Sequence record: OL631481.1
Source of the DNA: Escherichia phage ECML-183-2
DNA: 64,000 nucleotides
Direction: 5' to 3' (one strand)
Made by a program: the position numbers and the translations under genes. The notes below the pieces were generated by a model, which made no database searches, was not told the DNA's origin, and worked only from the letters and a program-made list of their open reading frames with translations. Of the stretch, positions 7,348 to 43,309 are shown piece by piece. The first letter of the stretch is position 1. Every line of letters begins with the position of its first letter.

Positions 7348-7584
7348 ATGGGTAAACTAATTATGACAGTGGCTATTGATTTTGATGAAGTAGATGAAAG
7401 CCTCAACCTTTCACTTTCTACTGACGTAGATGGCGAAATGGATAATATTGAAGCAGCTACTGCTCTTTTCTTCAAAAAAGCCATTGAAGTTTATGCCGAA
7501 CATGCTGCAAATCAGGCAGTAGATTACGGTGGTATCGTGCGAGCTTTAGTTCACTCTACCGAGGGCAATGACTGGGAAGATTAA
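7348..7584 (+). CDS. hypothetical protein (78 aa)
   Basis: ORF track; RBS AAGGAG. Confidence 0.45.
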   Translation: MGKLIMTVAIDFDEVDESLNLSLSTDVDGEMDNIEAATALFFKKAIEVYAEHAANQAVDYGGIVRALVHSTEGNDWED

Positions 7585-7787
7585 TGGCTTACAATTATTA
7601 CTGCATTTATGCACATGAGAAGAAAAAAGGTGACACTGGGACTAACGTTTATGCGGAGTCCGAATCTCATGCAAAAGAGATTGGTGCTATCCTTTTATCA
7701 CGCTGGACTGGAAATAATTACAGTGCAGAAGATATGTTTGCAGAAGTGGATTCTAGTATCCAAGAAGGCAACATAACAACTACGTGA
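7584..7787 (+). CDS. hypothetical protein (67 aa)
   Basis: ORF track; ATG overlaps upstream stop. Confidence 0.4.
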   Translation: MAYNYYCIYAHEKKKGDTGTNVYAESESHAKEIGAILLSRWTGNNYSAEDMFAEVDSSIQEGNITTT

Positions 7788-7795
7788 TATACTTA

Positions 7796-7821
7796 TACTC
7801 CCTTTTCGGAGGGAGTATTTT
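7796..7821 (+). terminator. rho-independent terminator
   Basis: TACTCCC-loop-GGGAGTA hairpin followed by TTTT. Confidence 0.55.
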
Positions 7822-7832
7822 AAGGAGGGATT

Positions 7833-8027
7833 ATGCAGAGCGGAGAAGAACTTTTAGAGAAACAATTCTCAACGCGTCAACAAGCTTTAAGTTATATGGT
7901 TTTTCTAAGCAATCTTGATGTGAATGAGATACTTTTACGGCGCGAAGGTAATTTCTGGAGCGTTAAATATCATGCAACAAGGTCTGTAATCTACCTGGAA
8001 GAGGCGGAATTCTCTTTGGTAGAATGA
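7833..8027 (+). CDS. hypothetical protein (64 aa)
   Basis: ORF track; RBS AAGGAGGG. Confidence 0.45.
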   Translation: MQSGEELLEKQFSTRQQALSYMVFLSNLDVNEILLRREGNFWSVKYHATRSVIYLEEAEFSLVE

Positions 8028-9694: not shown

Positions 9695-10002
9695 TGTATA
9701 AGATTACAATTATTCAAAGTGTAGGTAATATCCGTAAAGAAGTTATCTTAGAAACAGAAGATGTTAATCTTGTTCGTGAGATTGTTTTTAAGGAAGATAA
9801 CCTGCAAACTGTAGAATCGGATGCACCGAATCTTATGGTGGATCAAGAATATTCTGAACTTCGTCGTATTTTTGAAGAGATTCAGAAGAAAGAAACACAA
9901 CCTACCATAAAACCTTTTGGTCCTTATGATCCGAGCAATCCTAGCAGTCCTTGGATCATGAGAAATACGGAACCCTATACACCTTTTGAAATTACTTGTT
10001 GA
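9694..10002 (+). CDS. hypothetical protein (102 aa)
   Basis: ORF track; RBS GAGGAGG. Confidence 0.5.
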   Translation: MYKITIIQSVGNIRKEVILETEDVNLVREIVFKEDNLQTVESDAPNLMVDQEYSELRRIFEEIQKKETQPTIKPFGPYDPSNPSSPWIMRNTEPYTPFEITC

Positions 10003-10009
10003 GGTGATT

Positions 10010-10591
10010 ATGGCAGAACTGTTCTATACGGGAGTTGGAAGTAGAGACATATCTGAAGAAGAGTGGGCTTTGATGGTAGGCATAGGGAAATGGCTTTCAA
10101 ACCTTGGGTTTAAATTAAGGTCTGGGAAGGCAGAGGGTAGTGATTCTGCTTTTGAAACAGGTGTCCAAGAGTCTGAAAATCCTACTAACAAGGAGATTTA
10201 TGTTCCTTGGGAAAATTTCAAAGGTAATCAGATTCCAGGTGATGTTATTGTTCTTGCAAAACCAGATACAATGAACTATGCTATCTCTGTGCAATGGATC
10301 AAAGATGTTCACCCAGCTTATGAAAAGCTTAAGCAGGGTGCTAGAAAATTGCACCAACGTAATGTGCATCAAGTGTTAGGCAGAGATTTGGAGAATCCTG
10401 CTCCATCATGTTTCTTGTTGGCTTGTGCTAATACTGATAAACATGGAGATGCAAAAGGTGGAACAGCTACGGCTTGGAAGATAGCTAAAGCCAATAATGT
10501 TCCTTGTTTAAACATTCGTGGGAAAACAAAACAAGAGATTTACGATTTTCTACGACCTTTGGTAATGAGGGCAATAACAAGTGATTCCTAG
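10010..10591 (+). CDS. DprA/Smf-like Rossmann-fold (SLOG-type) protein
   Basis: GVGSRD ... LRSGKAEGSDSAFETG resembles DprA core; start moved to ATG after GAGG. Confidence 0.4.
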   Translation: MAELFYTGVGSRDISEEEWALMVGIGKWLSNLGFKLRSGKAEGSDSAFETGVQESENPTNKEIYVPWENFKGNQIPGDVIVLAKPDTMNYAISVQWIKDVHPAYEKLKQGARKLHQRNVHQVLGRDLENPAPSCFLLACANTDKHGDAKGGTATAWKIAKANNVPCLNIRGKTKQEIYDFLRPLVMRAITSDS

Positions 10592-11093: not shown

Positions 11094-11362
11094 CAAGTTT
11101 TGAAAGTAACTTCGTTACCGCTTGGGAAGCTTGGGATGAAATGGGTGTTGGGGAACTTTATTTTTACAATGTAACACTACGTCCAGAGTATGCTTACCTG
11201 GTACCAGAAGGAACAGTTCAAATTGGCATGTATTTGTCTTCTCAAGACGGTGTTGTTCAATTTGAGTTTTATTCTAACACAACGGACAACGAATTTACAT
11301 ACCGCGCATTTCATGTCAACATGTCTTTAGGAGAGGAGAAATTTTATGACGACCAAGTTTAA
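11072..11362 (+). CDS. hypothetical protein (96 aa)
   Basis: ORF track; RBS GAGGAGG. Confidence 0.45.
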   Translation: MAEFGSVTSFESNFVTAWEAWDEMGVGELYFYNVTLRPEYAYLVPEGTVQIGMYLSSQDGVVQFEFYSNTTDNEFTYRAFHVNMSLGEEKFYDDQV

Positions 11363-11543
11363 AACAGTAGAAGAAGCCGTAAAAGCAGCTTATGAGGCTT
11401 TAGCGGAAGCAGAGCAGTTAGCAGATGAGACTGGTAAAGGTTTCCGTTTCTCCCCTGAATATGGGATGGGTGGTTATTATGATCCAGAAGACGAAAATGA
11501 GAACACTGGAACAAATTGGCATCCATCTTCTTTAAGTTGTTAA
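11346..11543 (+). CDS. small acidic protein with C-terminal W-H-P-S-S-L-S-C tail (paralog 1 of 3)
   Basis: 65 aa; helical N-terminus; ends NWHPSSLSC. Confidence 0.5.
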   Translation: MTTKFKTVEEAVKAAYEALAEAEQLADETGKGFRFSPEYGMGGYYDPEDENENTGTNWHPSSLSC

Positions 11544-11554
11544 TAGGAGGTAAA

Positions 11555-11824
11555 GTGGGAATCGAAGATATCAAAGGTTATAAACCGCATACCGATGACA
11601 AAATTGGTAAAGTGAATGCTATTAAAGATGCTGAAGTTCGATTAGGATTAATCTTTGATGCTCTAATGTCTGAATTGTGGGCTGAACTGGACGATTGTGA
11701 AGATTTGGAAGAGTCTACCAATATATCCACCCGCCTTGACCAAATTTCAATAGCAAAGACTAAGTTGAAAGAAGCTTCTATGTGGGCCTGTCGTTCCGTT
11801 TTCCAACCAGAGGAGAAATACTAA
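11555..11824 (+). CDS. hypothetical protein (about 89 aa, GTG start)
   Basis: Track ORF trimmed to GTG preceded by TAGGAGGT RBS. Confidence 0.4.
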   Translation: MGIEDIKGYKPHTDDKIGKVNAIKDAEVRLGLIFDALMSELWAELDDCEDLEESTNISTRLDQISIAKTKLKEASMWACRSVFQPEEKY

Positions 11825-21712: not shown

Positions 21713-22240
21713 TTACTCATTTCTACCTCCTTCAATGCTTTGTGCCGTACCATCCCAAGCCATTAGAATGTTTTCCAATAGTTCACGAGGCTCTTTAAAC
21801 CAAACTTCCATTTCATCAAGGATCTCGTCCGTGTCGTAAGTATAACCTGGAACACCAAGTTCACATTTCTTAAGATAGCTTTCTAACCAGCGGTGATAAT
21901 TCTTAACCCATTCATACTGTGCTACCTTTTCTTTTACCCAATCTACACGATCTTTATCATAATGTTGAGTGCCAAGGAAAAAACCATTGTGGAAACTTTC
22001 CTCACCGAAAGGATAAATTGGATCTAAACCATCTTCTTCAAATAACATTTTTAATCTGTTTGATGTAGATTTCTTAGTTTCTGAATTGTAGTTTGTGGTT
22101 ATAAGCCAATCTTCCAAACAACGACACAAACCTTGACGAGAATCCCAAGGAAAAACACAATCTCCGACAGGAGCTTGTTTCGCCCATTTCAACCAGCCTT
22201 TAAAAAAGTTATACAGTATGTAGTCTTCAGTGTAATACAT
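21713..22240 (-). CDS. member of a six-copy paralogous family (FY..WL..GAP ... CHLN ... WVK)
   Basis: Start moved to ATG with AAGGAGG RBS; shares N- and C-terminal family motifs. Confidence 0.5.
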   Translation of the reverse strand: MYYTEDYILYNFFKGWLKWAKQAPVGDCVFPWDSRQGLCRCLEDWLITTNYNSETKKSTSNRLKMLFEEDGLDPIYPFGEESFHNGFFLGTQHYDKDRVDWVKEKVAQYEWVKNYHRWLESYLKKCELGVPGYTYDTDEILDEMEVWFKEPRELLENILMAWDGTAQSIEGGRNE

Positions 22241-22291
22241 TATCTCCTCCTTTACGTATACAATAACACCCCGAAGAACGGGGTGCAACTG

Positions 22292-22907: not shown

Positions 22908-23180
22908 TCACCCCCAAGAAATATTTATATATCTTACAATGTTTGCACTGTCTAAAGCCATGTTTGCACCACACCCACGCTCGCGCCAGTAACTAACAAT
23001 ACCTTCACAGATACTCTCTTGTATCTTCTTATCACTTGGCATTTCTAGTATAAGACTTGGGTTGTGGATGTTTATGTTATAATATCCTTCCTCTGCGGCT
23101 TGAGCTACCAATTTACTTACTTTTTCAAAGTACGGGGAATTAGTGGCATCTGCTATTGTTTTTAAGGTTTGTCTATCCAT
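22908..23180 (-). CDS. hypothetical protein (90 aa)
   Basis: ORF track. Confidence 0.5.
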   Translation of the reverse strand: MDRQTLKTIADATNSPYFEKVSKLVAQAAEEGYYNINIHNPSLILEMPSDKKIQESICEGIVSYWRERGCGANMALDSANIVRYINISWG

Positions 23181-23545
23181 TATTCTGCCTCATCATAGAA
23201 GAAATCCAACTCTTGTTCCAGTTGTTTAACTTGATCCTTAACCCACTGTACACGTTTTTCATTAAACATGCAACGTTTTTCCTTACACTCTTGCTCAAAA
23301 GATTTTGCTGTGTTAAACGGGAAAGTTGTATCTAAACCAGCATTTTCAAAACTGGCTAATTGCATACCATAAACAGAATATGCTAAAGAATGATCGGCTC
23401 GAAATTCATCACTTATATACATACGTAGACCTCGGCATAAGCCAACATCAGCGTAACCACTTTCTCTTGGAAAGAGACGGAGGTGTTCTAACCAATTATT
23501 ATAGAAATCTAAAAGAATCCTCTTACACTTCAAATCGATTGTCAT
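23180..23545 (-). CDS. member of six-copy paralogous family
   Basis: LLDFYNNWLEHL ... TFPFN ... RVQWVKDQV; start moved to ATG with AAGGAG RBS. Confidence 0.5.
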   Translation of the reverse strand: MTIDLKCKRILLDFYNNWLEHLRLFPRESGYADVGLCRGLRMYISDEFRADHSLAYSVYGMQLASFENAGLDTTFPFNTAKSFEQECKEKRCMFNEKRVQWVKDQVKQLEQELDFFYDEAE

Positions 23546-23945
23546 AAAAAGTTTCTCCTTCATCGAACAAGTTGGCAAGATTGTTCACGGCAATCTGGGT
23601 GGAAAGAAGACAACTGTTTGCAGACACATAAGCACGAGCTATTTTGTAAACATAGGCTTTCGTATTACAATTGTCTAGGATCGGAAGACTTTCGTCGATA
23701 GCATCTATAACACTAAACATCACATCTAAAACTTTAATTGTAAGTATTGTATCTATATCTTCGTAACCTTTTTCAATCCGACCTGAATAGAAAGCATAGT
23801 CCTCAACAGTTCGTCGTTTAAACTGGCGCATAAAATCGGAACCATCTGTAGTAGAATTGAACAAATTTTCAAAAAATACCTCCCATCCGGCAAAAAGGGC
23901 TGACAGCATGATTAAGTGATCTACAGATTCATTTTCTTGTTTCAT
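23523..23945 (-). CDS. hypothetical protein (140 aa)
   Basis: ORF track. Confidence 0.5.
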   Translation of the reverse strand: MKQENESVDHLIMLSALFAGWEVFFENLFNSTTDGSDFMRQFKRRTVEDYAFYSGRIEKGYEDIDTILTIKVLDVMFSVIDAIDESLPILDNCNTKAYVYKIARAYVSANSCLLSTQIAVNNLANLFDEGETFYDNRFEV

Positions 23946-23953: not shown

Positions 23954-24631
23954 CTATTTAATGTTCAATCTAGCACACAAGCGAGAAACAGTTTTAGCAT
24001 CCCACTTACCACCACGTGCTGTTGCGATTTTCTTACTATTGAATTTTTCAGCAATAGTTTTGTAAGGTGTATTTAAATCTCTAAGGATCTCCAAGCGTTC
24101 ACGAAATGTCTCTGCAAAAGCGTCTGCTTTAACAGAATTGTATTCCATTTTTCCTTTTCTACGTGCAGCGGCAGTTTTAGGATTAGCACTGCCTAACAAA
24201 ACACCTTTGCTTTTTGCTACAGCAAGACCCTTTTTAATACGATCAGCAATACCTCTAACTTCTTGTTCAGCCAGAACAGACAGAAGCTGTATAACCATTT
24301 TATCTGCGTCTGGCATGATGGCTATCTTAACATCGATCATTTCTAGAAGAGTTGCTACGGAGGCGTTGTTACGACCCAAGCGGTCAACTTTAGCTACCAA
24401 TAAAGTTGCTCCGGTAGCTTTACACATTTCAACCGCTTTAACCAGTTCCTTACGTTGCTTCCAATCGCCCTTACCAGAATAGTATTCAGAAAATTGACCA
24501 ATAACTTCAGCATCAGGCACAGAGTCTAAGAAGTAACGGATATCGTTCTCTTGGCTCTCCATACCATATTGTGCCTCACCTTTTTTCTGTTTAGAAAGAC
24601 GACTGTAAACAACAAACTTTTTCATAACCAC
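23954..24631 (-). CDS. serine recombinase (resolvase/invertase family)
   Basis: VVYSRLSK with nucleophile Ser, LLVAKVDRLGRN, LAEQEVRGIADRIKKGL, C-terminal RGGKW..TVSRL. Confidence 0.8.
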   Translation of the reverse strand: MVMKKFVVYSRLSKQKKGEAQYGMESQENDIRYFLDSVPDAEVIGQFSEYYSGKGDWKQRKELVKAVEMCKATGATLLVAKVDRLGRNNASVATLLEMIDVKIAIMPDADKMVIQLLSVLAEQEVRGIADRIKKGLAVAKSKGVLLGSANPKTAAARRKGKMEYNSVKADAFAETFRERLEILRDLNTPYKTIAEKFNSKKIATARGGKWDAKTVSRLCARLNIK

Positions 24632-24654
24632 TCCTAAACCATTGCTGTATTCTC

Positions 24655-24683
24655 ACTTTACAAAACGAATAAACACTTGTCAA
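24655..24683 (-). promoter_or_regulatory. sigma70-type promoter for the recombinase gene
   Basis: rc reads TTGACA - 17 bp - TAAAGT. Confidence 0.5.
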
Positions 24684-24695: not shown

Positions 24696-24908
24696 TTACA
24701 GCCATTCTACTTTTAAGCAGTATTCTTCGACATGTTGTTTACGCTTGTTTTTGTCTATGTAAGTGTATTCAACAAATGTCCCAAGATAATCCTTGTCCAC
24801 ATTGTGTTGGCTATTAATTGGACATTTAGTACGACAAACCCGTTGCCACTGACGAAGAATTACGGCTTTGTTTTTAGGATCAAAGGGATGAGGGTAATGT
24901 GCCTTCAT
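24696..24908 (-). CDS. hypothetical protein (70 aa)
   Basis: ORF track. Confidence 0.45.
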   Translation of the reverse strand: MKAHYPHPFDPKNKAVILRQWQRVCRTKCPINSQHNVDKDYLGTFVEYTYIDKNKRKQHVEEYCLKVEWL

Positions 24909-26064: not shown

Positions 26065-26391
26065 TCAACCAATTATTTCTTCTGCTACACGTTCTTTTAC
26101 CCAGTTCACACGATCCACATTCAAATGACAACGGCTTTTTTCCGCTTCTAAGGTGTACTTTCCAAAATTACTGTTGAAAGGCAACACCATAACCAAACCT
26201 TTGAGGTAGAACTGCTCATGCATTTCATCCAGTACAGGTTCGTATCGTTCGCTTTCTCCTATGTCGTAAAAATCATAGAGGTTCGTGCACAAACCTGTGC
26301 AACGGGTGAACGGTTCACCTTCAGGAGCACCAGCTTCCAACCATGCCAAATACGTGCGGTAAAATGTTAATAGTTCTTCGCTCATTTCCAC
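26065..26391 (-). CDS. member of six-copy paralogous family
   Basis: LLTFYRTYLAWLEAGAPEGEPF ... LPFN ... CHLNVDRVNWVKERVA. Confidence 0.5.
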   Translation of the reverse strand: MEMSEELLTFYRTYLAWLEAGAPEGEPFTRCTGLCTNLYDFYDIGESERYEPVLDEMHEQFYLKGLVMVLPFNSNFGKYTLEAEKSRCHLNVDRVNWVKERVAEEIIG

Positions 26392-26596: not shown

Positions 26597-26824
26597 TTAT
26601 TCCTCCATCTCAAACCATTCAGGGAACACTTTATGGAAGACACGGGTTGTTTCCAAAAGGAATTCCAATTCTTTTTCCAGATCTGCGTTCCAATCGTGCA
26701 CTTTAACATTGATTGCCAATGCACTTGCACGGCGACTTAATTCTTGACAGATTGGATCACGCAGAACTATTGAGTCGTAAAACTGACAAACAGCTTCAAG
26801 TTCATACCAGTTATAATCCGACAT
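26597..26824 (-). CDS. hypothetical protein (75 aa)
   Basis: ORF track. Confidence 0.45.
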   Translation of the reverse strand: MSDYNWYELEAVCQFYDSIVLRDPICQELSRRASALAINVKVHDWNADLEKELEFLLETTRVFHKVFPEWFEMEE

Positions 26825-27150
26825 TATTCATCCTCCTCTGCAATACGATCTCTTACCCAATTAATTCTGTCCACGTTCAGGTGACAGGCATCTGCATCTG
26901 ACTCTAAGACATATGCATCGTAGTTCTCATTGAAAGGGAGTTCTTGATTCAACACTTTATGGTAAAACTGTGCGTGCATTTCATCTGACAAGGTTGTTAT
27001 AATGGGGTTGTAATTACCTCTGTGCACATAATCGAACAAGTTGGCACACAAACCACAATCCCGCCGAAAAGGTTTACCATCAGGAGCACCAACATCAATC
27101 CATGCTAGATAAATTTTATAAAACTCCATCAACCTTGCGCTTGTTTTCAT
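26824..27150 (-). CDS. member of six-copy paralogous family
   Basis: LMEFYKIYLAWIDVGAPDGKPF ... LPFN ... CHLNVDRINWVRDRIA; GAGGTGG RBS. Confidence 0.5.
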   Translation of the reverse strand: MKTSARLMEFYKIYLAWIDVGAPDGKPFRRDCGLCANLFDYVHRGNYNPIITTLSDEMHAQFYHKVLNQELPFNENYDAYVLESDADACHLNVDRINWVRDRIAEEDE

Positions 27151-29875: not shown

Positions 29876-30106
29876 TTATTTGTCTTGCTTGTATCTTACA
29901 AGGCGATCACACTCCAGGTCAAGAAATTTCTCCGCATTTCGTTCATGTTTGAGCACAATACATTGTTCTTTCCAGTCTGTAGCTCTTTGCTGCGCTGCTC
30001 CTGGGTCAAAATCCCAAAGCCATGCCGCGAAAAGAACAACTACCCAAAGCCATACCGCGAAAAGAACAACTATAACAATTACTAAGAAACTAAACACTAT
30101 TGGCAT
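29876..30106 (-). CDS. small membrane protein with internal 10-aa duplication
   Basis: Hydrophobic core VVLFAVWLW VVVLFAAWLW encoded by a 2x30-bp tandem repeat. Confidence 0.45.
   Translation of the reverse strand: MPIVFSFLVIVIVVLFAVWLWVVVLFAAWLWDFDPGAAQQRATDWKEQCIVLKHERNAEKFLDLECDRLVRYKQDK
30003..30062. repeat. 2 x 30-bp in-frame tandem duplication
   Basis: cccaaagccat[g/a]ccgcgaaaagaacaacta repeated head-to-tail, 1 mismatch. Confidence 0.8.
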
Positions 30107-30411
30107 TGCACATCCTCCTGTGTAGCATGATCTTTTACCCATTTTATACGGGCAGCATTCAAATGCAATAGCCCGTTTCTTTGTGCAAAATCATATTTAA
30201 ACCAGTCTCCGTCATCAAACGGGTATTCTTCAGACAACCCTGCTTCTCGAAATTGCATTTGCATTTCATAATTTAGATCATCGTAACCACCAGTCCAAAG
30301 GTAGAGGCAACTGCACAAACCTTTATCGTGCCAGAAAGGATTATTATCTGGAGCACCAGCTAACAGCCAATTATGATAGGCTTGATAAAATTCTTTAAGT
30401 TCTTCTGACAT
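30097..30411 (-). CDS. member of six-copy paralogous family
   Basis: LKEFYQAYHNWLLAGAPDNNPF ... YPFD ... LHLNAARIKWVKDHA. Confidence 0.5.
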   Translation of the reverse strand: MSEELKEFYQAYHNWLLAGAPDNNPFWHDKGLCSCLYLWTGGYDDLNYEMQMQFREAGLSEEYPFDDGDWFKYDFAQRNGLLHLNAARIKWVKDHATQEDVQCQ

Positions 30412-34266: not shown

Positions 34267-34605
34267 TTATTCAATGCAAGCATTATTTGCATCTTCAATG
34301 CGATCTTTCACCCACTGAAGACGTAACTCGTTGGTATGACACGCTAAACCTATGCACTCTGAAAGGTAATCCATGCAATCTGCATTAAACGGGAAATTGT
34401 AATCTAGTCCTGCACCAATAAACTGGGATTTCATCTCTTGTTGTAGACGAGGTAACAGTTCATCAGGGTATGTTCCCTCTACATACTTAATCAAACATAT
34501 GCACAAACCACTCGTTGTGTGACCTTCTACCTCACCAGCAAGCCAAGCTTTGTAAAACTTCATTAGACGTAAACTACTTAACGGAACATTTTTACTCTCT
34601 TGCAT
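34267..34605 (-). CDS. member of six-copy paralogous family
   Basis: LMKFYKAWLAGEVEG ... NFPFN ... CHTNELRLQWVKDRIE; GAGGAG RBS. Confidence 0.5.
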   Translation of the reverse strand: MQESKNVPLSSLRLMKFYKAWLAGEVEGHTTSGLCICLIKYVEGTYPDELLPRLQQEMKSQFIGAGLDYNFPFNADCMDYLSECIGLACHTNELRLQWVKDRIEDANNACIE

Positions 34606-34944
34606 GACAATCTCCTCTCATCGTTAGCCATCTTTCATGGCAATCATCAATCACCAACATCATACGATCAATCTTAAGGAATTACAATCGAATTATCATA
34701 GGGGATTCCTATCAATTATCCCATATATACCGATTATTTTTGACACCCCATTCTTGTATAAAAAGTAACCCAAAATATCCACGGGGAGAGATTATTTCGA
34801 CACACCCTGTTTCATGGCAATCATGGCAAGAATATCTAATAGAATCAATATCATATGGCAAAAATCATGGCGCATACGTAAGAAGTGCTTAACGCGAATT
34901 TTCGGGCCGTCAGGTCCACGCAGCGACAATTCCCAAATATCATG

Positions 34945-34967
34945 CGAATGAGAATAATTATCATTCG
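34945..34967. promoter_or_regulatory. Fur-box-like palindrome
   Basis: cgaatgagaataattatcattcg; near-perfect dyad, ~13/15 match to TGATAATCATTATCA. Confidence 0.3.
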
Positions 34968-35126
34968 TATTCAATGACTTATGCAAGGCTCATGCCAACA
35001 TAGCGACAAGGTGGGCCACCTGATTATAAATCACACAAACACTTATTTATCAATGGTTTGGCAACTTCATCATATGACGGAACAATGTCAACTAATCCCG
35101 CTCATGACAGACGGACTATTATTTAT

Positions 35127-35145
35127 ATGAGAATGATTATTATTT
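35127..35145. promoter_or_regulatory. Fur-box-like site
   Basis: atgagaatgattattattt. Confidence 0.25.
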
Positions 35146-35379
35146 AAACGTTTATTAACATATAAACTAAAATAAATCAAGAATTTTCTGATTTTATTTA
35201 CGTTTAAGAGAAGGTGCTCAACATCCTACCGGATCGCCGTTGGCAATCCTCGGATATTTACGCCCCCATGATTAAGGTTTATCTCTTTTATAGCTCAACA
35301 TTCCCGCCTGTGGCGGTAACATTTCGCCCCCAAAATTATTGACTTTTATTCTATTATGTGCATAGTGTGCAATGTATCG

Positions 35380-35397
35380 GAATGATGATAATCATCC
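35380..35397. promoter_or_regulatory. Fur-box-like site
   Basis: gaatgatgataatcatcc; ~13/14 match to ATAATGATAATCAT. Confidence 0.3.
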
Positions 35398-36181
35398 TCC
35401 CATTGCCCCCATAATTATTGCCATGCTAATTGTTTCATTACGTAATTATTACAATGACTATTGTTATTGCGCTAATGTTATGATCTTGGTAATTACATAT
35501 AATGCTAATAATAAGCCAGCGCAATAAGTGTAAGCGTCATTACGCTTGCAATTATTGCAAGCTACGCAGTAACAAGAAATAACCATCACCGATGGTTATG
35601 ATTGTTGGGGTGTAGTTGGCTTATTATTAGCTCGCTATGTGTCCGGCATAGCGTGCTAATGATGACTCTGTGAATGATTCGTTTTGTAATGATTTCATTC
35701 AGGCACTATTTTGCTAATAGTTATTATTTTAATGGTTTCGTTTGTTATTGTTCGTTAGTTGGTTGTTTTGTCGTGTTATCGTTATTTTGCTTAGTATTTA
35801 TCATGGTTTGATTGTTTGTCGTTATCAATCATCTTGCTATTATTCCTTTGATTATGATTAGTTTGCTTATTGTTTTATGTTGTTTGTTGGTTAGTTGTTG
35901 CGAACTATTATCAACATTATAATTATGCGCTTATATTGCATAGATAATCATGGGTAGATGATAATGGTTATCATTGCACTAGAAAGGAGGTAAAAGGGTG
36001 TTTTTGATGGTTTGTTGTTGGTTGTTGATCGATTTTAACCGCTCTAAATAGCTCTCTAACAGCCTGTTGCCCTGGGATGTATGGTTATTCGTTTAATGGT
36101 CGATTAGCTCGATACCGTGATTTATTCAGTTTTGTTCTGTGTCGGTTTTTCATAGGCGAAAGCTATCAACATTGTTCGGGC

Positions 36182-36208
36182 AAAAAGAAAGGGCGCTTTG
36201 TGCGCCCT
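36182..36208 (-). terminator. rho-independent terminator closing the cassette array
   Basis: rc reads AGGGCGC-loop-GCGCCCT + TTTCTTTTT. Confidence 0.6.
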
Positions 36209-36223
36209 GGTATGAAATGTTAT

Positions 36224-37913: not shown

Positions 37914-37930
37914 TTTACTTTCCTCATTAT

Positions 37931-37986
37931 CGGCGGCACCATTGCCGCCCTACGCATTAAATATAAGTTATCTAAGAGATTAGATC
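37931..37986 (-). promoter_or_regulatory. PeSL-like cassette (early promoter + 5' stem-loop)
   Basis: rc: TTGATC-17-TATATT then GGCGGCA-ATGG-TGCCGCC hairpin. Confidence 0.5.
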
Positions 37987-37991
37987 AAGGA

Positions 37992-38183
37992 TTATTTTGT
38001 AAAGATTACAGCTTCATCAAAATTTTCAACATAGTAAGCAAGCTCTTCATTTGCTGCAACCATTCCTAAAAGTTGGCTATAAGATAAACCTTTGATCCCT
38101 TCCTCGTTGTTTAATGCTTCGATGATTTCATCAACGGGCGCAAAAAACATGTTATTCGATTCCAGGTAGGAGATGGTTTTCAT
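37992..38183 (-). CDS. hypothetical protein (63 aa)
   Basis: ORF track; own cassette upstream. Confidence 0.5.
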   Translation of the reverse strand: MKTISYLESNNMFFAPVDEIIEALNNEEGIKGLSYSQLLGMVAANEELAYYVENFDEAVIFTK

Positions 38184-38204
38184 AATGTTTACCTTTTTCG
38201 GGGA

Positions 38205-38260
38205 GCGGCACCATTGCCGCCCTACGTGGTAAATATTAGCACACTGGCGATCTGTGTCAA
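38205..38260 (-). promoter_or_regulatory. PeSL-like cassette
   Basis: rc: TTGACA-16-TAATAT then GCGGCA-ATGG-TGCCGC hairpin. Confidence 0.55.
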
Positions 38261-38266
38261 TACTTT

Positions 38267-38653
38267 TTATTCAATATAAATCAAATTATCTTCACCAATG
38301 TAAGCCGACACGTTCGGCATAAACTTAGCTGCATTGGTTAGGCGGTTCGCCGTGTTAGTGGTGTATATTTCAGGGCGATCCCAAAAGCCTACGCCGTGAC
38401 CGTTACGGGTAAAATGTAAATCATTCCCGATCTGGTTGGCTGTTGCGCCGTCGCTCATTGCCTCAGAGATAGCGGCAAGATTAGCATTAATAAAGGCTGT
38501 TACATCCTGGGCGATCCGTTGATGGGCTTGATCTGAAAAATCATAATCAGTCATGTCATCTATAAAATTACCTTCATGATCCCTTGCGGATTCAGCAAAA
38601 ATAAAGGCTTCTTTATAACCGTTGATGATTTCAATAATGATTTCTGTTTTCAT
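38267..38653 (-). CDS. hypothetical protein (128 aa)
   Basis: ORF track; conserved-looking GHGVGFWDR segment, family unknown. Confidence 0.5.
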   Translation of the reverse strand: MKTEIIIEIINGYKEAFIFAESARDHEGNFIDDMTDYDFSDQAHQRIAQDVTAFINANLAAISEAMSDGATANQIGNDLHFTRNGHGVGFWDRPEIYTTNTANRLTNAAKFMPNVSAYIGEDNLIYIE

Positions 38654-38874
38654 GCTGTACGCTCGACAATAATAATAGTTTGCGGGATCTCGTTTTCTAC
38701 TACTAACAAGGCTTTTTTCTGTGTGATAGATATTTTAACACGTTGTAAAGTAGCGGTGAAATCTTTCATTTCATTATGCGCGGACTTCGTGCAATGCCAG
38801 ATCTCAGGCTTACCAACTTGTAAGCCGCGTAAAAATTCCGTTTTGCCTGTTTTGTTCGTGATCATTTGTTTCAC
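38650..38874 (-). CDS. hypothetical protein (74 aa)
   Basis: ORF track. Confidence 0.45.
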   Translation of the reverse strand: MKQMITNKTGKTEFLRGLQVGKPEIWHCTKSAHNEMKDFTATLQRVKISITQKKALLVVENEIPQTIIIVERTA

Positions 38875-38875
38875 C

Positions 38876-38980
38876 TTAACCGATACCGTGGGAAGATAGG
38901 ATCATGTTAGCCATAGTTGCAACCACTCCAACCGATAACGCCAGGCCCACTATTACAACCGTGAAAATTTTCTCTAACAT
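38876..38980 (-). CDS. small membrane protein (34 aa)
   Basis: Track ORF trimmed to ATG with GAGGG RBS; upstream part is hairpin read-through. Confidence 0.45.
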   Translation of the reverse strand: MLEKIFTVVIVGLALSVGVVATMANMILSSHGIG

Positions 38981-38996
38981 GATTCTACCCTCATTA

Positions 38997-39059
38997 ATGG
39001 GCGTTGCACCATTGCCCCGCCCTACGTAATACACTTTACCAGATAACAAATTATTGTCA
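38997..39059 (-). promoter_or_regulatory. PeSL-like cassette
   Basis: rc: TTGACA-16-TAAAGT then GC hairpin. Confidence 0.5.
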
Positions 39060-39124
39060 AGGTTTATTTTACTTCCCAAACGGAAAATTCACTGCGTGGC
39101 GGGAAGTATTCCCCGCCTTATTAA

Positions 39125-39295
39125 TTACTCTTCATCGTCGCCGTTATAGTATTCAATGCCGTTTTCATCGGTTACGGTGATGTTAACGCCACCGATAGCA
39201 ACACGATCACGGGCAAACGTCATAGCTTCATTTAAATCTTCAGACCAAAAAATATTGTGACCTTTGCGCGATACATAAAACATAGTCGGGATCAT
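39125..39295 (-). CDS. hypothetical protein (56 aa)
   Basis: Track ORF trimmed to internal ATG; GC hairpin 39097-39116 downstream. Confidence 0.45.
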   Translation of the reverse strand: MIPTMFYVSRKGHNIFWSEDLNEAMTFARDRVAIGGVNITVTDENGIEYYNGDDEE

Positions 39296-39318
39296 GATTT
39301 GTTTCTCTTCTGTTGTGA

Positions 39319-39379
39319 GCGGTGGACCATTCCGCCGCCCTATGTGGTAAACTTTACTACGTTGTTTGCCTGTTGTCAA
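39319..39379 (-). promoter_or_regulatory. PeSL-like cassette
   Basis: rc: TTGACA-17-TAAAGT then GGCGG-loop-CCGCC hairpin. Confidence 0.5.
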
Positions 39380-39380
39380 A

Positions 39381-39665
39381 TTATTTTTTAATGTTTTGCC
39401 CTACAAAATTGATCACTTCCTTAAGCTGTCTCTCTGTCATGATCGTACCTGGTAACTCTTCTTTAATTTCTTCCGGTAAATAGATATTACCGCGCCAGGT
39501 TAACAAACAACCGTTTTGATCTTCGCAGATAGAATAAGAAAACATCCACTCGCAATCATTTTCAAGCTCCCAAAAACACAAAAAGTCTTCTTTCCCTAAG
39601 TTTTCAACGGTTAAACATAATCCGCGACGTGCTGCATAATTAGTCAGGCTTTTTGTGATTTTCAT
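39381..39665 (-). CDS. hypothetical protein (94 aa)
   Basis: Track ORF trimmed to internal ATG. Confidence 0.5.
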   Translation of the reverse strand: MKITKSLTNYAARRGLCLTVENLGKEDFLCFWELENDCEWMFSYSICEDQNGCLLTWRGNIYLPEEIKEELPGTIMTERQLKEVINFVGQNIKK

Positions 39666-39686
39666 GATTTTTCTCTCTTCTTGTGA

Positions 39687-39742
39687 GCGGCACCATTGCC
39701 GCCCTACAAGATACATATTATCAGACTAGGCGGACTTGTCAA
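39687..39742 (-). promoter_or_regulatory. PeSL-like cassette
   Basis: rc: TTGACA-16-TAATAT then GCGGCA-ATGG-TGCCGC hairpin. Confidence 0.55.
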
Positions 39743-39743
39743 A

Positions 39744-39854
39744 CTATTTTTTCTTTTTCTTTGCTTCCAACCGTCTAAGGTTACGGCTTGACTTATTTCG
39801 CAAGGCGCTTAGATCGTCGTACCCTTTCCATGCTTGCATATCTTTCGGATTCAT
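39744..39854 (-). CDS. small basic protein (36 aa)
   Basis: Not in ORF track; AAGGGG RBS; hand-derived coordinates. Confidence 0.3.
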   Translation of the reverse strand: MNPKDMQAWKGYDDLSALRNKSSRNLRRLEAKKKKK

Positions 39855-39863
39855 GTTATCCCC

Positions 39864-40025
39864 TTACTTGTTAGCCGGATCATATACCAGGACCGCGCCG
39901 CTTGCTTTCACGCTTTCCGCTTCATAGTTGCGCAGATCGTTTTCTGTAAGGTTGAGCGCGATCACTTCCTCGATCTCAACGTCAGCGGCAAGGGCGATCT
40001 CTTTGATAATGTCTGTTGTTTTCAT
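39864..40025 (-). CDS. small acidic protein (53 aa)
   Basis: Not in ORF track; AAGGTG RBS; hand-derived coordinates. Confidence 0.35.
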   Translation of the reverse strand: MKTTDIIKEIALAADVEIEEVIALNLTENDLRNYEAESVKASGAVLVYDPANK

Positions 40026-40035
40026 AGTACGCACC

Positions 40036-40155
40036 TTATAAGATGATTGATAAGATAGTGATAACGAAAGCGATTATACTGATGGCAAATGTCATCTTTT
40101 TACCTTCGGATACTGCCGGATTTTCTACCGTGTATTCTACTGTGTACTTGCTCAT
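40036..40155 (-). CDS. small membrane protein (39 aa)
   Basis: Not in ORF track; C-terminal hydrophobic helix; directly after cassette. Confidence 0.35.
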   Translation of the reverse strand: MSKYTVEYTVENPAVSEGKKMTFAISIIAFVITILSIIL

Positions 40156-40178
40156 CGTGTAATCCTCTCGTTTGCTTT

Positions 40179-40235
40179 GGGAACTATTCCCGCCGCCTTA
40201 TGAATTAAATATACACTATCTCAAAATGATTGCAA
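40179..40235 (-). promoter_or_regulatory. PeSL-like cassette
   Basis: rc: TTGCAA-16-TATATT then GGGAA-TAG-TTCCC hairpin. Confidence 0.5.
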
Positions 40236-40252
40236 GCCTTTTTCTAAATTAT

Positions 40253-40537
40253 TTATGCAGTAAACAAACCATCATTTACAACGGCGGCGATGATCTCCCG
40301 TGCCATTGATTCAGGGAAAGGGGCGCTATAGTCCTGGCTTGTCTCATCGGTATCAGTGATCCAATGATAAGCTAACGAGTAAAAGCCTTTACTAACTGTT
40401 TTCAGTGAGATGATGATCACTCGGTCAAGCTTATTGGTGAATGTTGCCGTTAATGTGTTACCCTCCTGCGTCATGTTGGACAAGTAAGCGGGATCATTAA
40501 TCAGGGAAAACATTAGCACGGTGTTAGCTTTACTCAT
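40253..40537 (-). CDS. hypothetical protein (94 aa)
   Basis: Track ORF trimmed to internal ATG; the track ATG lies inside the hairpin loop. Confidence 0.5.
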   Translation of the reverse strand: MSKANTVLMFSLINDPAYLSNMTQEGNTLTATFTNKLDRVIIISLKTVSKGFYSLAYHWITDTDETSQDYSAPFPESMAREIIAAVVNDGLFTA

Positions 40538-40557
40538 GATTGCATCCTCAAAGGGGC

Positions 40558-40612
40558 GCGGCACCATTGCCGCCCTACACGATAACTATAACACAATGTA
40601 AAACAGGATCAA
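40558..40612 (-). promoter_or_regulatory. PeSL-like cassette
   Basis: rc: TTGATC-16-TATAGT then GCGGCA-ATGG-TGCCGC hairpin. Confidence 0.5.
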
Positions 40613-40815
40613 CCTTTATTTTTCCACGGTGTCAGCTTGTTAATCATTGGTGATAAATAGCGTTTACCAACGTAAAACAGTACGCCAACTGATGCAACGG
40701 CGGCGATCTCATGTAAGGAGGAAGGTCGCGCGGTGTCATAATAGGTACCAATAATAGCAATAGCGGCTACTGCGGCAATGTCTGTAATAATTTTTTCTTG
40801 TTTTGCGGTGATCAT
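40609..40815 (-). CDS. small membrane protein (68 aa)
   Basis: Track ORF trimmed to internal ATG; two hydrophobic segments. Confidence 0.5.
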   Translation of the reverse strand: MITAKQEKIITDIAAVAAIAIIGTYYDTARPSSLHEIAAVASVGVLFYVGKRYLSPMINKLTPWKNKG

Positions 40816-40838
40816 AATATTTACCTTTTTGTATGGTG

Positions 40839-40895
40839 GGGGAACTATTCCCCGCCTGATGTAATACAGTTTAACAGGTCCGGTTATGGTGTCAA
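40839..40895 (-). promoter_or_regulatory. PeSL-like cassette
   Basis: rc: TTGACA-15-TAAACT then GGGGAA-TAG-TTCCCC hairpin. Confidence 0.5.
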
Positions 40896-40901
40896 CCACT
40901 T

Positions 40902-41087
40902 TTAAAGATATTTTATATTGATAACGTTTTCAGGTTTAACCTTGTTGTGATGTGCATCAACATAGATCAAACCATCGTCAGAAAAGCCCAGGATCACGCC
41001 CTGCGCAATAAAACCGTATTCGTCACGGTAACGCACGGCTATTTTTAACGTTGCGTTGTAGGCTGTTTTAAGCTCGTTTAAAGTCAT
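40902..41087 (-). CDS. hypothetical protein (61 aa)
   Basis: ORF track. Confidence 0.45.
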   Translation of the reverse strand: MTLNELKTAYNATLKIAVRYRDEYGFIAQGVILGFSDDGLIYVDAHHNKVKPENVINIKYL

Positions 41088-41108
41088 TTTTGTTTATCCT
41101 CTACATGT

Positions 41109-41136
41109 AAAAAGAAAGGGCGCTTGGTGCGCCCTT
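41109..41136 (-). terminator. rho-independent terminator inside the array
   Basis: rc reads AAGGGCGC-ACCAA-GCGCCCTT + TCTTTTT. Confidence 0.6.
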
Positions 41137-41142
41137 GTTATG

Positions 41143-41289
41143 TTAATCCTCTAAATCCATCCAATTATATTTGTCACTCTTCCCGCGCTTTGTTTTATTA
41201 CGCTTGTCGCCTTTTCGGATCACTTCCTCGTTCCAGGCCTTGCGGATCTTGGAAGATTGAATTTTTTCTGCGCGATTAGATGTATTCAT
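41143..41289 (-). CDS. small basic protein (48 aa)
   Basis: Not in ORF track; AAGAGGA RBS; Lys/Arg-rich. Confidence 0.4.
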   Translation of the reverse strand: MNTSNRAEKIQSSKIRKAWNEEVIRKGDKRNKTKRGKSDKYNWMDLED

Positions 41290-41309
41290 TTTGTTTCCTC
41301 TTTATATGA

Positions 41310-41362
41310 GCGGCACCATTGCCGCTATATTATTAATTTAAACTGTTTTGTAAAATTGTCAA
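41310..41362 (-). promoter_or_regulatory. PeSL-like cassette
   Basis: rc: TTGACA-16-TAAATT then GCGGCA-ATGG-TGCCGC hairpin. Confidence 0.5.
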
Positions 41363-41368
41363 GGTTTA

Positions 41369-41722
41369 TCATTGATAAGAGCAAGCAAGGATCACGCCTG
41401 CAATATAAAGCCAATAATTTTCCCTTTCTCGTTGGATTTTATCATCGCTGCTATTCTCTTTAATGTATCCCCAGGATGTTAACAGGCGATCAATTTCCCA
41501 ATATTCGAAAGCGATATTGATATCTGATGGCAAGCCTTGTAACCATGATGCAAGTGCTTTAACAATACTATAATTAAAACGTGATTGGTTATCAGGGTAC
41601 CAGTACTCGGAATTAAAACGGTGCATCAATTCCGCGATCTTCTCTTTTTCGGTTGTAATACCGTAATCATTAAAATCGATAGCGGCAAGGATGTACTCTT
41701 TAATTGCATTTTGTGCTTTCAT
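41369..41722 (-). CDS. hypothetical protein (117 aa)
   Basis: ORF track. Confidence 0.5.
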   Translation of the reverse strand: MKAQNAIKEYILAAIDFNDYGITTEKEKIAELMHRFNSEYWYPDNQSRFNYSIVKALASWLQGLPSDINIAFEYWEIDRLLTSWGYIKENSSDDKIQRERENYWLYIAGVILACSYQ

Positions 41723-41741
41723 GGTCTTTCTCTCTTTTTGA

Positions 41742-41798
41742 GCGGGAACTATTCCCGCCCTACGTGTAACAGTTTACTAAAAATTAAATCCGTGTCAA
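41742..41798 (-). promoter_or_regulatory. PeSL-like cassette
   Basis: rc: TTGACA-16-TAAACT then GCGGGAA-TAG-TTCCCGC hairpin. Confidence 0.55.
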
Positions 41799-41801
41799 GC
41801 T

Positions 41802-42023
41802 TTATTTTGTTACTACCATTTGGTACCCTGTTTCAATGTTAGTAAATACTGTTATCCCGTCCTGGCGTTCACTCATTAGCATACAAGGCGCTAACATCCT
41901 TTCTACTGCCTTGCACTCATTGTAAACGGCGGTTATGTCTCCTGCGGCCTTGTCTTCTGTGGTGAATGTATCGTTTACGTAAACCTGACCAGCGACAACG
42001 GCGACAATAGCGAAAGTGATCAT
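41802..42023 (-). CDS. hypothetical protein (73 aa), shares MITFA 5' end with next-upstream gene
   Basis: ORF track; first ~20 nt of CDS plus RBS duplicated at 42245-42270. Confidence 0.5.
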   Translation of the reverse strand: MITFAIVAVVAGQVYVNDTFTTEDKAAGDITAVYNECKAVERMLAPCMLMSERQDGITVFTNIETGYQMVVTK

Positions 42024-42054
42024 GATGTTTCCTTGTTAGTAGTGGTTTCTCTTC

Positions 42055-42095
42055 TCTATAGCGCCCATTGTAAGGCGCTATAACGAAAAGTCAAC
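42055..42095 (-). promoter_or_regulatory. variant cassette (promoter overlapping TATAGCGCC hairpin)
   Basis: rc: TTGACT-16-TACAAT with 9-bp-stem hairpin overlapping. Confidence 0.4.
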
Positions 42096-42097
42096 GA

Positions 42098-42265
42098 TTA
42101 TTTTTTAAGGCTTAAAGTACCTAACTTGTCAGCATGACGCAGACCAGGGAAGATCCATTTGCCTGATTCATCTTTCACCGGGGCTTTAAGCGTAGCGCCC
42201 AGGTTGGCGGCGTTAACTTTACGTGCAACGTTGCGAGCGGCTTCACGGGTAGCGAAAGTGATCAT
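42098..42265 (-). CDS. small protein (55 aa) starting MITFA
   Basis: Not in ORF track; hand-derived; same 5' end as 41802..42023. Confidence 0.4.
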   Translation of the reverse strand: MITFATREAARNVARKVNAANLGATLKAPVKDESGKWIFPGLRHADKLGTLSLKK

Positions 42266-42289
42266 GATATTTTCCTCTTCTCTTTGTTA

Positions 42290-42351
42290 GGCGGTGGACC
42301 ATTCCGCCGCCTTGATGTAATACAGTTTACTTTATTTTTGCAGTATTGCAA
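42290..42351 (-). promoter_or_regulatory. PeSL-like cassette
   Basis: rc: TTGCAA-16-TAAACT then GGCGG-loop-CCGCC hairpin. Confidence 0.5.
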
Positions 42352-42357
42352 GCGGTT

Positions 42358-42570
42358 TTATGAAATAATCGTCAAAGTAAAATTGTAATCACCTGATTGA
42401 TACAATACTTTATCACCGAACGTTCCAACACGTTTAACATTGCAATATATACCCATAACACTTTTTACATCTTTGATATTCTTCACGCCTGTAATATCTT
42501 TATTAAAATGATCGTGATCAGAAAATAAAACTTGTTTTGCATTTTTCAACAAGGTGCGGATATTAGCCAT
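42358..42570 (-). CDS. hypothetical protein (70 aa)
   Basis: ORF track. Confidence 0.5.
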   Translation of the reverse strand: MANIRTLLKNAKQVLFSDHDHFNKDITGVKNIKDVKSVMGIYCNVKRVGTFGDKVLYQSGDYNFTLTIIS

Positions 42571-42595
42571 CGTGATAATCTCTCTTCTGTTGTGA

Positions 42596-42651
42596 GCGGC
42601 ACTATTGCCGCCCTACGTAATACAGTTTACTCTTTTTCTTTCCCGTGTCAA
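42596..42651 (-). promoter_or_regulatory. PeSL-like cassette
   Basis: rc: TTGACA-16-TAAACT then GCGGCA-ATAG-TGCCGC hairpin. Confidence 0.55.
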
Positions 42652-42660
42652 CAATCTTTT

Positions 42661-42888: not shown

Positions 42889-42911
42889 AATCTTTAATCT
42901 CTCTGTTGTTG

Positions 42912-42970: not shown

Positions 42971-42980
42971 CTGTTTTTTA

Positions 42981-43303: not shown

Positions 43304-43309
43304 TGCTTT

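Follow-up and report, generated by a model that had tools for sequence, protein, structure and literature searches.

The question raised by a recombinase gene near 24 kb in the genome of Escherichia phage ECML-183-2 is what a site-specific recombinase does in a strictly lytic phage. The stretch analysed here (OL631481.1; 64,000 nucleotides (nt), hereafter the window) had been described in an earlier reading of the sequence (the original prediction) as an early region of a T4-like phage. Comparison with other genomes showed that the window was 98% identical to Phapecoctavirus genomes (phAPEC8-like myoviruses of ~150 kb within the Stephanstirmvirinae), and the T4-like assignment was abandoned. 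What the original prediction had right was the identity of the gene, a small serine recombinase that is complete and is carried by a strictly lytic phage. Taken jointly, the identity and integrity of the recombinase, its distribution, its relocation within the subfamily and the lack of a local inversion switch are held here with high confidence, while its role in infection is proposed much more tentatively.

Recombinase gene and expression signals

The open reading frame (ORF) originally reported on the minus strand at 23954..24631, with 225 amino acids (aa), was confirmed except for its start. The mechanically called GTG at 24631 falls within an AGGAG ribosome-binding site (24631..24635, minus strand; read from the sequence) that lies 5 nt upstream of an ATG at 24625, and because of this overlap the ATG was taken as the real start. 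The coding sequence (CDS) spans 23954..24625 on the minus strand, stop codon included, and encodes 223 aa (MKKFVVYSRLSK...ARLNIK). The annotated ortholog length was also 223 aa, and the AGGAG-N5-ATG layout recurred in orthologs.

A sigma-70-type promoter dedicated to the gene (TTGACA-17-TAAAGT; 24655..24683, minus strand) was predicted by a consensus scan with 10 of 12 positions matching, in line with the consensus promoter first proposed. Together with the ribosome-binding site it fills the 64-bp gap between the recombinase gene and the gene upstream. A dedicated promoter is not unusual in this region, because about eight further promoters with a perfect TTGACA -35 element were present on the same strand within 17-37 kb of the window. 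A TTGACA/TTGCAA-17-TAnnnT promoter was found at the same position in nine of ten orthologs, those of Vibrio phages and ICP1 included. A 26-bp dyad over the window promoter (AATAAATAC-N8-GTGTTTATT) was rejected as a candidate element; it was not kept in phiWec181 or phi92 and had a p value of 0.5.

Catalytic domain and protein architecture

The 223-aa protein matched Pfam Resolvase (PF00239) with an E value of 5e-18 and a score of 66 bits (cut-off 23.3), and the match covered aa 5-142 against positions 2-144 of the 145 in the profile. A match with PHROG 125 ('DNA invertase') gave an E value of 3e-32. Both the Y-x-R-x-S nucleophile motif and the Arg/Asp cluster (D-R-x-x-R) were present. Residues Y7, R9, S11, R58, D81, R82 and R85 were invariant across an alignment of 33 family members that were 29-100% identical to the window protein, and the catalytic serine, on whose alignment the first identification depended, was S11 in all 33 sequences. 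The AlphaFold (AF2) model, with a predicted local distance difference test score (pLDDT) of 87.8, agreed with the full resolvase/invertase catalytic domain originally described. The model showed a mixed alpha/beta catalytic fold (aa 1 to ~105) followed by a long alpha-E helix (aa 109-139) and a helical C-terminal DNA-binding domain (aa ~149-219, with helices at 149-172, 175-183, 188-197 and 210-219), and Foldseek matched it to the catalytic domains of Sin, gamma-delta, Bxb1 and TP901-1 with a probability of 1.00. Judged from these features, the product is a small serine recombinase that is catalytically intact, its activity being predicted.

The C-terminal half produced a weak, sub-threshold match with PF07508 ('Recombinase' domain) at aa 187-216 (model positions 19-48 of 102), and precomputed PF07508 hits exist for several family members. 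A family profile aligned residues 2-97 with residues 3-97 of the TP901-1 integrase, and it matched aa 117-216 to the part of SPbeta SprA and Bxb1 that comprises alpha-E and the recombinase domain. An hhalign comparison with a 448-aa large serine recombinase of a related prophage gave a probability of 92% over the same C-terminal stretch, with an alignment that stopped at residue 171 of the latter. In addition, the motif IA..LN..G..T.RGG.W....V was common to the C-terminal region and large serine recombinases, and the longer N-terminal insert of the window protein (RxS-x(9-10)-G...Q) is a trait of large serine recombinases as well. In large serine recombinases (~450-700 aa) a zinc ribbon and a coiled coil are defining features and control directionality. 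These two elements and the rest of the recombinase domain were absent from the 223-aa protein. The architecture is, by these alignments, a truncated large-serine-recombinase type, in which the catalytic domain and alpha-E are followed by no more of the recombinase domain than its first helical sub-domain, and the N-terminal motif and C-terminal domain point to a place in the large-serine-recombinase lineage.

Comparison with known systems showed that the protein resembles Tn3/gamma-delta resolvase and Sin in its catalytic fold and residues, its alpha-E helix, its size (~200 aa) and its C-terminal DNA-binding domain. Unlike in these resolvases, the N-terminal motif has the longer insert and the C-terminal domain resembles the start of the large-recombinase domain and not a resolvase helix-turn-helix, and unlike Tn3/gamma-delta the window gene has neither a transposase partner nor a three-subsite res region, the intergenic space being 64 bp. 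With the Bxb1, TP901-1, phiC31 and SPbeta SprA integrases it shares the catalytic domain, and its alpha-E and C-terminal region match the first part of their recombinase domain; it differs from them in the missing parts named above, and no attP/attB and no lysogeny were seen for the window phage. It also differs from IS607-type serine transposases, since its catalytic domain starts at residue 1-5 and its DNA-binding domain is C-terminal rather than MerR-like and N-terminal. All NCBIfam models scored below their cut-offs, with a YneB-like resolvase, XisF and Mpi as the top matches. Membership in a defence system was rejected, as PADLOC gave no match for the recombinase.

Distribution and annotation

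An identical protein was found in more than 60 GenBank phage records and the exact protein was indexed in 884 blocks of public assemblies. Protein identities by tblastn were 99-100% in Phapecoctavirus, 74-75% in phiWec181 and phiWec188, 57% in Justusliebigvirus, which includes phi92 gp053, and 55-57% in Klebsiella and Serratia members. Distant copies were present in large Vibrio phages (35-39%) and in some ICP1 isolates (30%). A total of 135 Stephanstirmvirinae records were recognised by a closely related large terminase against ~137 recombinase-positive records, so the recombinase is a near-universal gene of the subfamily. It is inherited vertically. The earlier suggestion of a mobile-element remnant was not borne out, as the gene is near-universal and its catalytic residues are invariant at 55-75% ortholog identity. 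Its family is nonetheless one that occurs with mobile elements, and the unit of promoter and gene has changed its place.

The phAPEC8 copy of the gene was intact. In Schickermooser (NC_048196.1, ~11,300-11,600) six deletions (1, 1, 7, 1, 2 and 7 nt) within the first 280 nt destroyed the catalytic half, and the remaining gene and its flanks were ~98-99% identical to the window. Since Schickermooser is viable in this state, the recombinase appears dispensable for laboratory growth. The clustering of the deletions is odd for neutral decay and a sequencing problem is possible.

Neither the 5,426 complete E. coli genomes searched nor the 72,556 plasmids contained a match to the recombinase locus, and the absence of temperate-phage hallmarks noted in the original prediction was confirmed to that extent. 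Since the locus was unmatched in these collections, there was no sign of lysogeny or plasmid-like persistence, and persistence of the phage as a prophage or plasmid was rejected.

The gene was already known and annotated, and its observation is real but ordinary. The identical protein carries the labels recombinase family protein, DNA invertase, resolvase and serine recombinase. Annotated orthologs include phi92 gp053 ('DNA invertase'), phAPEC8 G377_gp216 ('putative site-specific recombinase'), ESCO13 ('resolvase'), UP17 ('serine recombinase') and SKA64 ORF101, with 100% (identical) or 57% protein identity, the same length and the same dedicated promoter. No experimental work on the orthologous genes was found and the published literature consisted of speculation only; the SKA64 paper speculates on a resolvase/invertase that keeps concatemers as a single genome (PMC10282059). 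ESCO5 and ESCO37 were stated to have no recombinase (PMC10269720), contrary to the tblastn search, which found it in both at 100% and 99.6% identity. Many records mislabel the recombinase as 'methionine ABC transporter ATP-binding protein' or 'putative ABC transporter ATP-binding protein'. In addition, near-identical genomes were deposited as Campylobacter phages B15, C3 and A145, Acinetobacter phage ABPW7 and Klebsiella phage ZCKP1, and these host labels look doubtful.

Recombinase genes are red flags in the screening of phages for therapy, for which Phapecoctavirus and Justusliebigvirus are popular candidates. Such a flag is easier to interpret when the gene is known to occur throughout a strictly lytic subfamily and to have no copies in prophages or plasmids among thousands of E. 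coli genomes.

Search for an inversion switch

The original prediction placed a possible inversion switch near 24 kb. A search for the inverted repeats that would flank it was run in the window and in a composite genome of 149,107 bp, made from the window and the rest of the 98%-identical DE16 genome, and none that was credible was found in either. The 25 longest inverted pairs in the window were 70-80% complementary, which is chance level, terminator hairpins aside. Self-blast of the composite genome showed no inverted pair of at least 20 nt besides terminator hairpins and AT-rich palindromes.

Orientation was compared by megablast against 50,697 phage records with the window regions 12-37 kb and 33-53 kb, a 25-kb tail-fibre/replication region and two more 25-kb chunks with structural and nucleotide-metabolism genes. 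Full row listings were inspected for the first three regions, and summary counts with a few sampled rows for the last two. The regions compared comprised window 12-53 kb and, outside the window, all but ~11 kb of the composite genome, and inversions below ~1 kb could escape the comparison. In ~60 close genomes, window 12-53 kb and the tail-fibre/replication region matched as a single same-strand place, record-end breaks aside. Nothing was inverted in the summary counts and few sampled rows of the structural and nucleotide-metabolism chunks, and 10 independent assemblies with the exact protein were collinear over ±10 kb. The proposed switch near 24 kb was not supported by these results, and the recombinase is not part of an inversion switch beside the gene or in any compared region. 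In the original prediction, a lack of cognate sites anywhere in the genome would have counted against the proposal. This test is not applicable to a resolvase, because a resolvase needs one site per genome copy.

Three other candidates were rejected. Clusters of Fur-box-like palindromes at ~35 kb and 46.9 kb were considered as the ends of an invertible 12-kb segment, which was inverted in no genome. Dispersed GC-hairpin repeats at 37.9-46.2 kb were considered as recombination sites and turned out to be cassettes of a promoter, a stem-loop in the 5' untranslated region (UTR) and a ribosome-binding site, all oriented with the genes. Finally, invertible tail-fibre segments beside two prophage relatives (L170 and L173) were considered and had no flanking inverted repeats.

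Relatives and a predicted family site

The homology searches produced 93 homologs at 96-100% coverage, as well as 467 relatives in viral contigs and 234 in genomes. Homology to a clade of ~220-aa serine recombinases extended over the full length, with the catalytic domain and the same C-terminal domain. Relatives at 31-43% identity were found in prophages (one beside a large serine integrase), Rhodobacterales islands and plasmids, and one relative was in a satellite-like element with primase and small-terminase genes. Some of the plasmids are very small, at 5.8 kb in Klebsiella, 6.4 kb in Synechococcus and 5.8 kb for Marinovum pMaD11, which also carries RepA and a ParA-like gene. The best-supported reading of these comparisons places the recombinase in a clade that is associated with plasmids and mobile elements and descends from large serine recombinases.

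Dyads of the form 14+(0-2)+14 were sought within 110 nt upstream of the start in 182 family genes, and each region was compared with 200 dinucleotide shuffles. Significant dyads (p<0.05) were present in 39 of the 182 regions against 9.1 expected, and nearly all of the 39 had a 2-bp centre, a position 5-30 nt from the start codon and the core (A/T)ACG-NN-CGT(T/A). When the site was fixed as an ACG-NN-CGT core bearing no more than one mismatch, with a minimum of 10 of 14 pairs and a place within 110 nt upstream, the dyad was found upstream in 26 of 163 loci and in 0 of 163 in each of two control windows. The site-bearing relatives were 31-38% identical to the window protein (loci L016-L169 and L190; for example L169, L164, L054, L143 and L144). 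A 34-bp dyad around a 2-bp centre precedes the recombinase start codon by 34 bp on the Klebsiella plasmid, where the predicted family site is TCATTTGTTTGCCG-AA-CGGCAAATTTATGA (NZ_CP118334.1, 4325-4354).

The 30-bp dyad is probably the cognate crossover site of this uncharacterised recombinase clade. Its 2-bp centre and its place beside the gene, overlapping the 5' region, recall Tn3/gamma-delta resolvase and Sin. A second copy within the 3-4 kb flanks was present in none of the 26 loci, and one dyad per replicon is as expected for a site of multimer resolution, or possibly of integration, and not of local inversion. The core also resembles the repeat consensus of the Bacteroides invertase Mpi (ARACGTWCGT). 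The family site offers a starting point for biochemistry on this clade of short enzymes of large-serine-recombinase descent, which could interest genome engineers as well.

Relocation of the promoter-plus-gene unit

Synteny by blastp placed the recombinase unit between the orthologs of window ORFs 7584-7787 and 7833-8027 in phi92, in one Klebsiella phage and in other genomes of Justusliebigvirus type, and also in one Serratia phage and two metagenomic relatives. The surrounding block includes genes for endolysin, PhoH, an HslV-like peptidase, a methyltransferase, a NinI-like phosphatase and a DprA-like protein, and is fully syntenic with window 3.8-11.4 kb. In more distant phages (49%, 39% and 35% identity) the recombinase adjoins orthologs of the DprA-like or methyltransferase gene, and the locus at 7788-7832 was for this reason taken as the ancestral position. 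In Phapecoctavirus the block is intact minus the recombinase, and the gene now lies ~16 kb away on the opposite strand. By this synteny, a self-contained promoter-plus-gene unit moved ~16 kb in the Phapecoctavirus lineage, and it is the one relocation seen across the subfamily.

Junction sequences and ORF synteny defined the empty ancestral site in the window (7788..7832, plus strand), which holds a terminator-like hairpin (ACTCCCTTTTCGGAGGGAGT) and a ribosome-binding site. A precise footprint of excision or insertion was sought at the occupied and empty junctions and rejected, as neither repeats nor target duplications were present. The empty site has the appearance of a simple deletion in which a similar ribosome-binding site was reused.

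In three distant phages from viral contigs (L009, L010 and L011) the recombinase was at most ~1 kb from the ortholog of the phi92 'DprA-like' gene, and in a 139-kb Vibrio-type contig it was directly beside it. The window ortholog (9986-10591) had no Pfam match. These arrangements suggest that the recombinase and the DprA-like gene form an old linkage that was broken in Phapecoctavirus.

Physical genome ends

The genome of phi92 is annotated with identical 343-bp direct terminal repeats, and terminal repeats of 342 bp were described for BME3 (PMC12210895). The reverse complement of the phi92 repeat aligned to window ~34,891-35,218, in an ORF-free stretch of 1.6 kb (~34,610-36,220), and window ~34,890 is also where a number of the GenBank records for the genus have their first or last base. 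The physical genome terminus lies inside the window, and the recombinase gene is ~10.3 kb from this end, in the leftward early region. No lox-like or other candidate recombination site was identified in the 343-bp repeat. The BME3 record (PP239276.1; L186/L187) contains the terminal repeat three times: a partial copy stands at its start, and two complete ones are separated by 861 bp. This has the look of an artefact that arose at the ends of the record during assembly or circularisation.

Possible function

How the enzyme would act can be proposed from the usual mechanism of serine recombinases and by analogy with its relatives. Its synthesis would be early, driven by a promoter of host type that lies ~10 kb from the physical end of the genome, and it would act in trans. 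Dimers bound at two sites would synapse, all four strands would be cut through phosphoserine links, and the strands would be rejoined after rotation of the subunits. The most likely reaction would be resolution, a deletion between copies of one site in direct repeat, because the relatives have one 30-bp dyad per replicon, some of them on 6-kb plasmids beside Rep/Par genes. The copies of the site would lie on different genome units in replication multimers or concatemers; alternatively, they would lie in the two 343-bp terminal repeats, and the incoming genome would be circularised in a Cre/lox-like manner. The Cre/lox system of P1 circularises the terminally redundant incoming genome, resolves dimers and is non-essential in recombination-proficient hosts. 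The analogy is functional only, since Cre is a tyrosine recombinase and P1 is temperate, and the phage repeat has no counterpart of lox among the sites identified. The function appears dispensable in the laboratory. Multimer resolution, also named in the original prediction, gains indirect support from the relatives on plasmids of 5.8-6.4 kb with a single gene-adjacent dyad. Resolution-type recombination on a single site is put forward as a tentative role that is somewhat unlikely when taken by itself, and the combined statement of an intact, subfamily-wide recombinase with an early, trans-acting resolution role is a possible account that falls short of being probable.

Several observations weigh against this proposal. 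The ACG-NN-CGT dyad was present in 0 of 8 loci with at least 45% identity, the best dyad in the window upstream region had 9 of 14 pairs (p=0.5), and a scan of the composite genome for family-type sites gave 3 matches against 3.9 expected. The best dyad genome-wide (7409-7438, ~350 bp from the ancestral locus) was rejected, being inside a CDS and not conserved in phi92 or the Klebsiella phage. The phage clade is, from these sequences, one with no adjacent family site. A lytic phage that packages concatemers and has terminal repeats would have no obvious need for multimer resolution, Schickermooser is still a viable phage with its recombinase broken, and the analogy leans on relatives that are only 31-40% identical. 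That a strictly lytic lineage has long retained an intact site-specific recombinase, yet without the gene-adjacent site of its relatives, is a small biological puzzle. One unlikely solution would be that a lytic ancestor captured a resolvase lineage of plasmid type, which then shed the site beside its gene and persisted, over more divergence than that of the subfamily, as a trans-acting enzyme of the immediate-early phase. It would either join the two 343-bp terminal repeats and so circularise the incoming genome, a serine-recombinase equivalent of Cre/lox in a strictly lytic phage, or rearrange host or competitor DNA.

The missing site would also be explained if the target were not phage DNA at all, and the immediate-early recombinase rearranged host, prophage, satellite or plasmid DNA in takeover or counter-defence, for instance by disabling a defence locus or a competitor. 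The host-type promoter fits such a role, as do the small early accessory genes around the recombinase, among them Sir2 and, in one related assembly, an Acb2/Tad1-like gene; the distant homolog in ICP1 lies in a variable accessory stretch of only some isolates, and the gene is dispensable in one isolate. Against this, there was no candidate host site and no PADLOC match, a literature search found no known precedent, and a gene that is near-universal across Escherichia-, Klebsiella- and Serratia-infecting genera would require a target common to all of them, so that this explanation is unlikely too. If instead the gene were a selfish or functionless passenger, a cassette derived from a mobile element that hitch-hikes or moves itself and has no phage role, its different places in different genera, the frequency of the family in prophages, genomic islands, plasmids and a satellite-like element, and the broken copy in Schickermooser would all be accounted for. 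A passenger would hardly be kept in essentially all of ~135 genomes with invariant catalytic residues, however, and the divergence of its orthologs (55-75%) is within the range of neighbour genes. The relocation junctions, with neither repeats nor target duplications, indicate no self-mobilisation, and a single relocation was seen across the subfamily; a passenger is judged quite improbable.

Two further explanations are given still less weight. A DNA-binding regulator (a repressor or architectural protein) in which recombination is secondary, like resolvases that repress their own promoter, is suggested by dyads over the gene's own promoter or 5' UTR in a Klebsiella phage (ATGAAGAGTA-N5-TACTCTTCAT) and in Vibrio phage L087 (13 of 14 pairs), also in L011, and by the family site of the relatives, whose position 5-30 nt from the start codon implies autoregulation. 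The whole set of catalytic residues is invariant, which a pure regulator would not need, and the dyads vary in sequence and position within the subfamily, with none on the window copy (p=0.5), which makes this role very unlikely. An inversion switch, in which the enzyme flips a promoter or gene segment between inverted sites as Gin, Cin and Hin do, has in its favour the PHROG 125 name and a family profile that scores Gin slightly above resolvases (2.7e-16 against 3.7e-15); in single-sequence comparison Gin showed low identity to the window protein (E=0.006). A further precedent is Mpi of Bacteroides, a serine invertase that acts in trans on many distant sites (PMC4747536). The NCBIfam match to this master invertase family was weak (aa 22-193, E=7e-5) and far below the cut-off (22.6 bits against 272), and Mpi-type sites in the phage genome were not above chance. 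Like the Hin/Gin/Cin/Pin invertases of phages and prophages, the window protein is a serine recombinase of a tailed phage. Unlike in those systems, no flanking inverted sites, invertible segment or tail-fibre association was found for the window gene. The composite genome offered only terminator hairpins and AT-rich palindromes as inverted pairs of 20 nt or more, the ~60 near-identical genomes with the same strand order over 12-37 kb, 33-53 kb and the tail-fibre/replication region came from many laboratories, the two further chunks and the 10 collinear assemblies agreed within the limits given above, and an inverted second copy was near the site in none of the 26 relatives with a defined site. 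For segments above ~1 kb in the compared regions an inversion switch is largely refuted, and as an overall explanation it is highly improbable.

Neighbouring genes and other repeats

Palindromes of the Fur-box-like 7-1-7 type were found at 34949-34963, 35128-35142, 35959-35973, 46841-46855 and 46899-46913, and also at 19811 and 58493, with TGATAATnATTATCA as the Fur-box consensus. With at most two mismatches, 7 were observed against 0.74 expected, and 0 of 100 shuffles reached 7. They cluster in the terminal-repeat region and near 46.9 kb, and the phi92 terminal repeat holds a perfect TGATAATGATTATCA. This suggests that host Fur or a phage protein may bind candidate sites at the genome ends or an origin. 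Beside the second cluster, a 67-nt direct repeat with 84% identity (46957-47023 and 47095-47161, 138 nt apart) could be an origin or other regulatory region.

A family of direct repeats was present at ~37,930-46,180, with copies at 37933, 38205, 39687, 40558, 41310, 42596, 43974, 44614 and 46144 and a variant type at ~39319, 42291, 44431 and 45869. Each repeat consists, on the minus strand, of an early promoter close to consensus (TTGACA-17-TAATAT/TATAGT), a conserved stem-loop in the 5' UTR (GGGCGGCAATGGTGCCGC), a ribosome-binding site and an ATG. They look like the promoter-early-stem-loop cassettes of T4-type phages, and could drive gene shuffling in this variable region.

The neighbours of the recombinase are small hypothetical proteins, with no linked transposase or terminal inverted repeats. 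Genes for a group of small paralogous proteins (~108-190 aa; 21713-22288, 23180-23578, 26065-26391, 26824-27150, 30097-30411 and 34267-34605, all minus strand) are scattered around it. These proteins share the motifs ..YLAWL..GAP.G.PF.R..GLC.NL.. and ..DRV.WVK.R.. and had no Pfam match. A Pfam scan of the neighbours gave a single match, DUF7202 (E=2e-37), for the 70-aa gene directly upstream (24696-24908, minus strand). This gene was 78-82% identical in DNA to a gene of many T4-like coliphages, named tk.3 in AR1, and was the only T4-like element near the recombinase; the likeness indicates an exchange of genes between unrelated groups of lytic phages.

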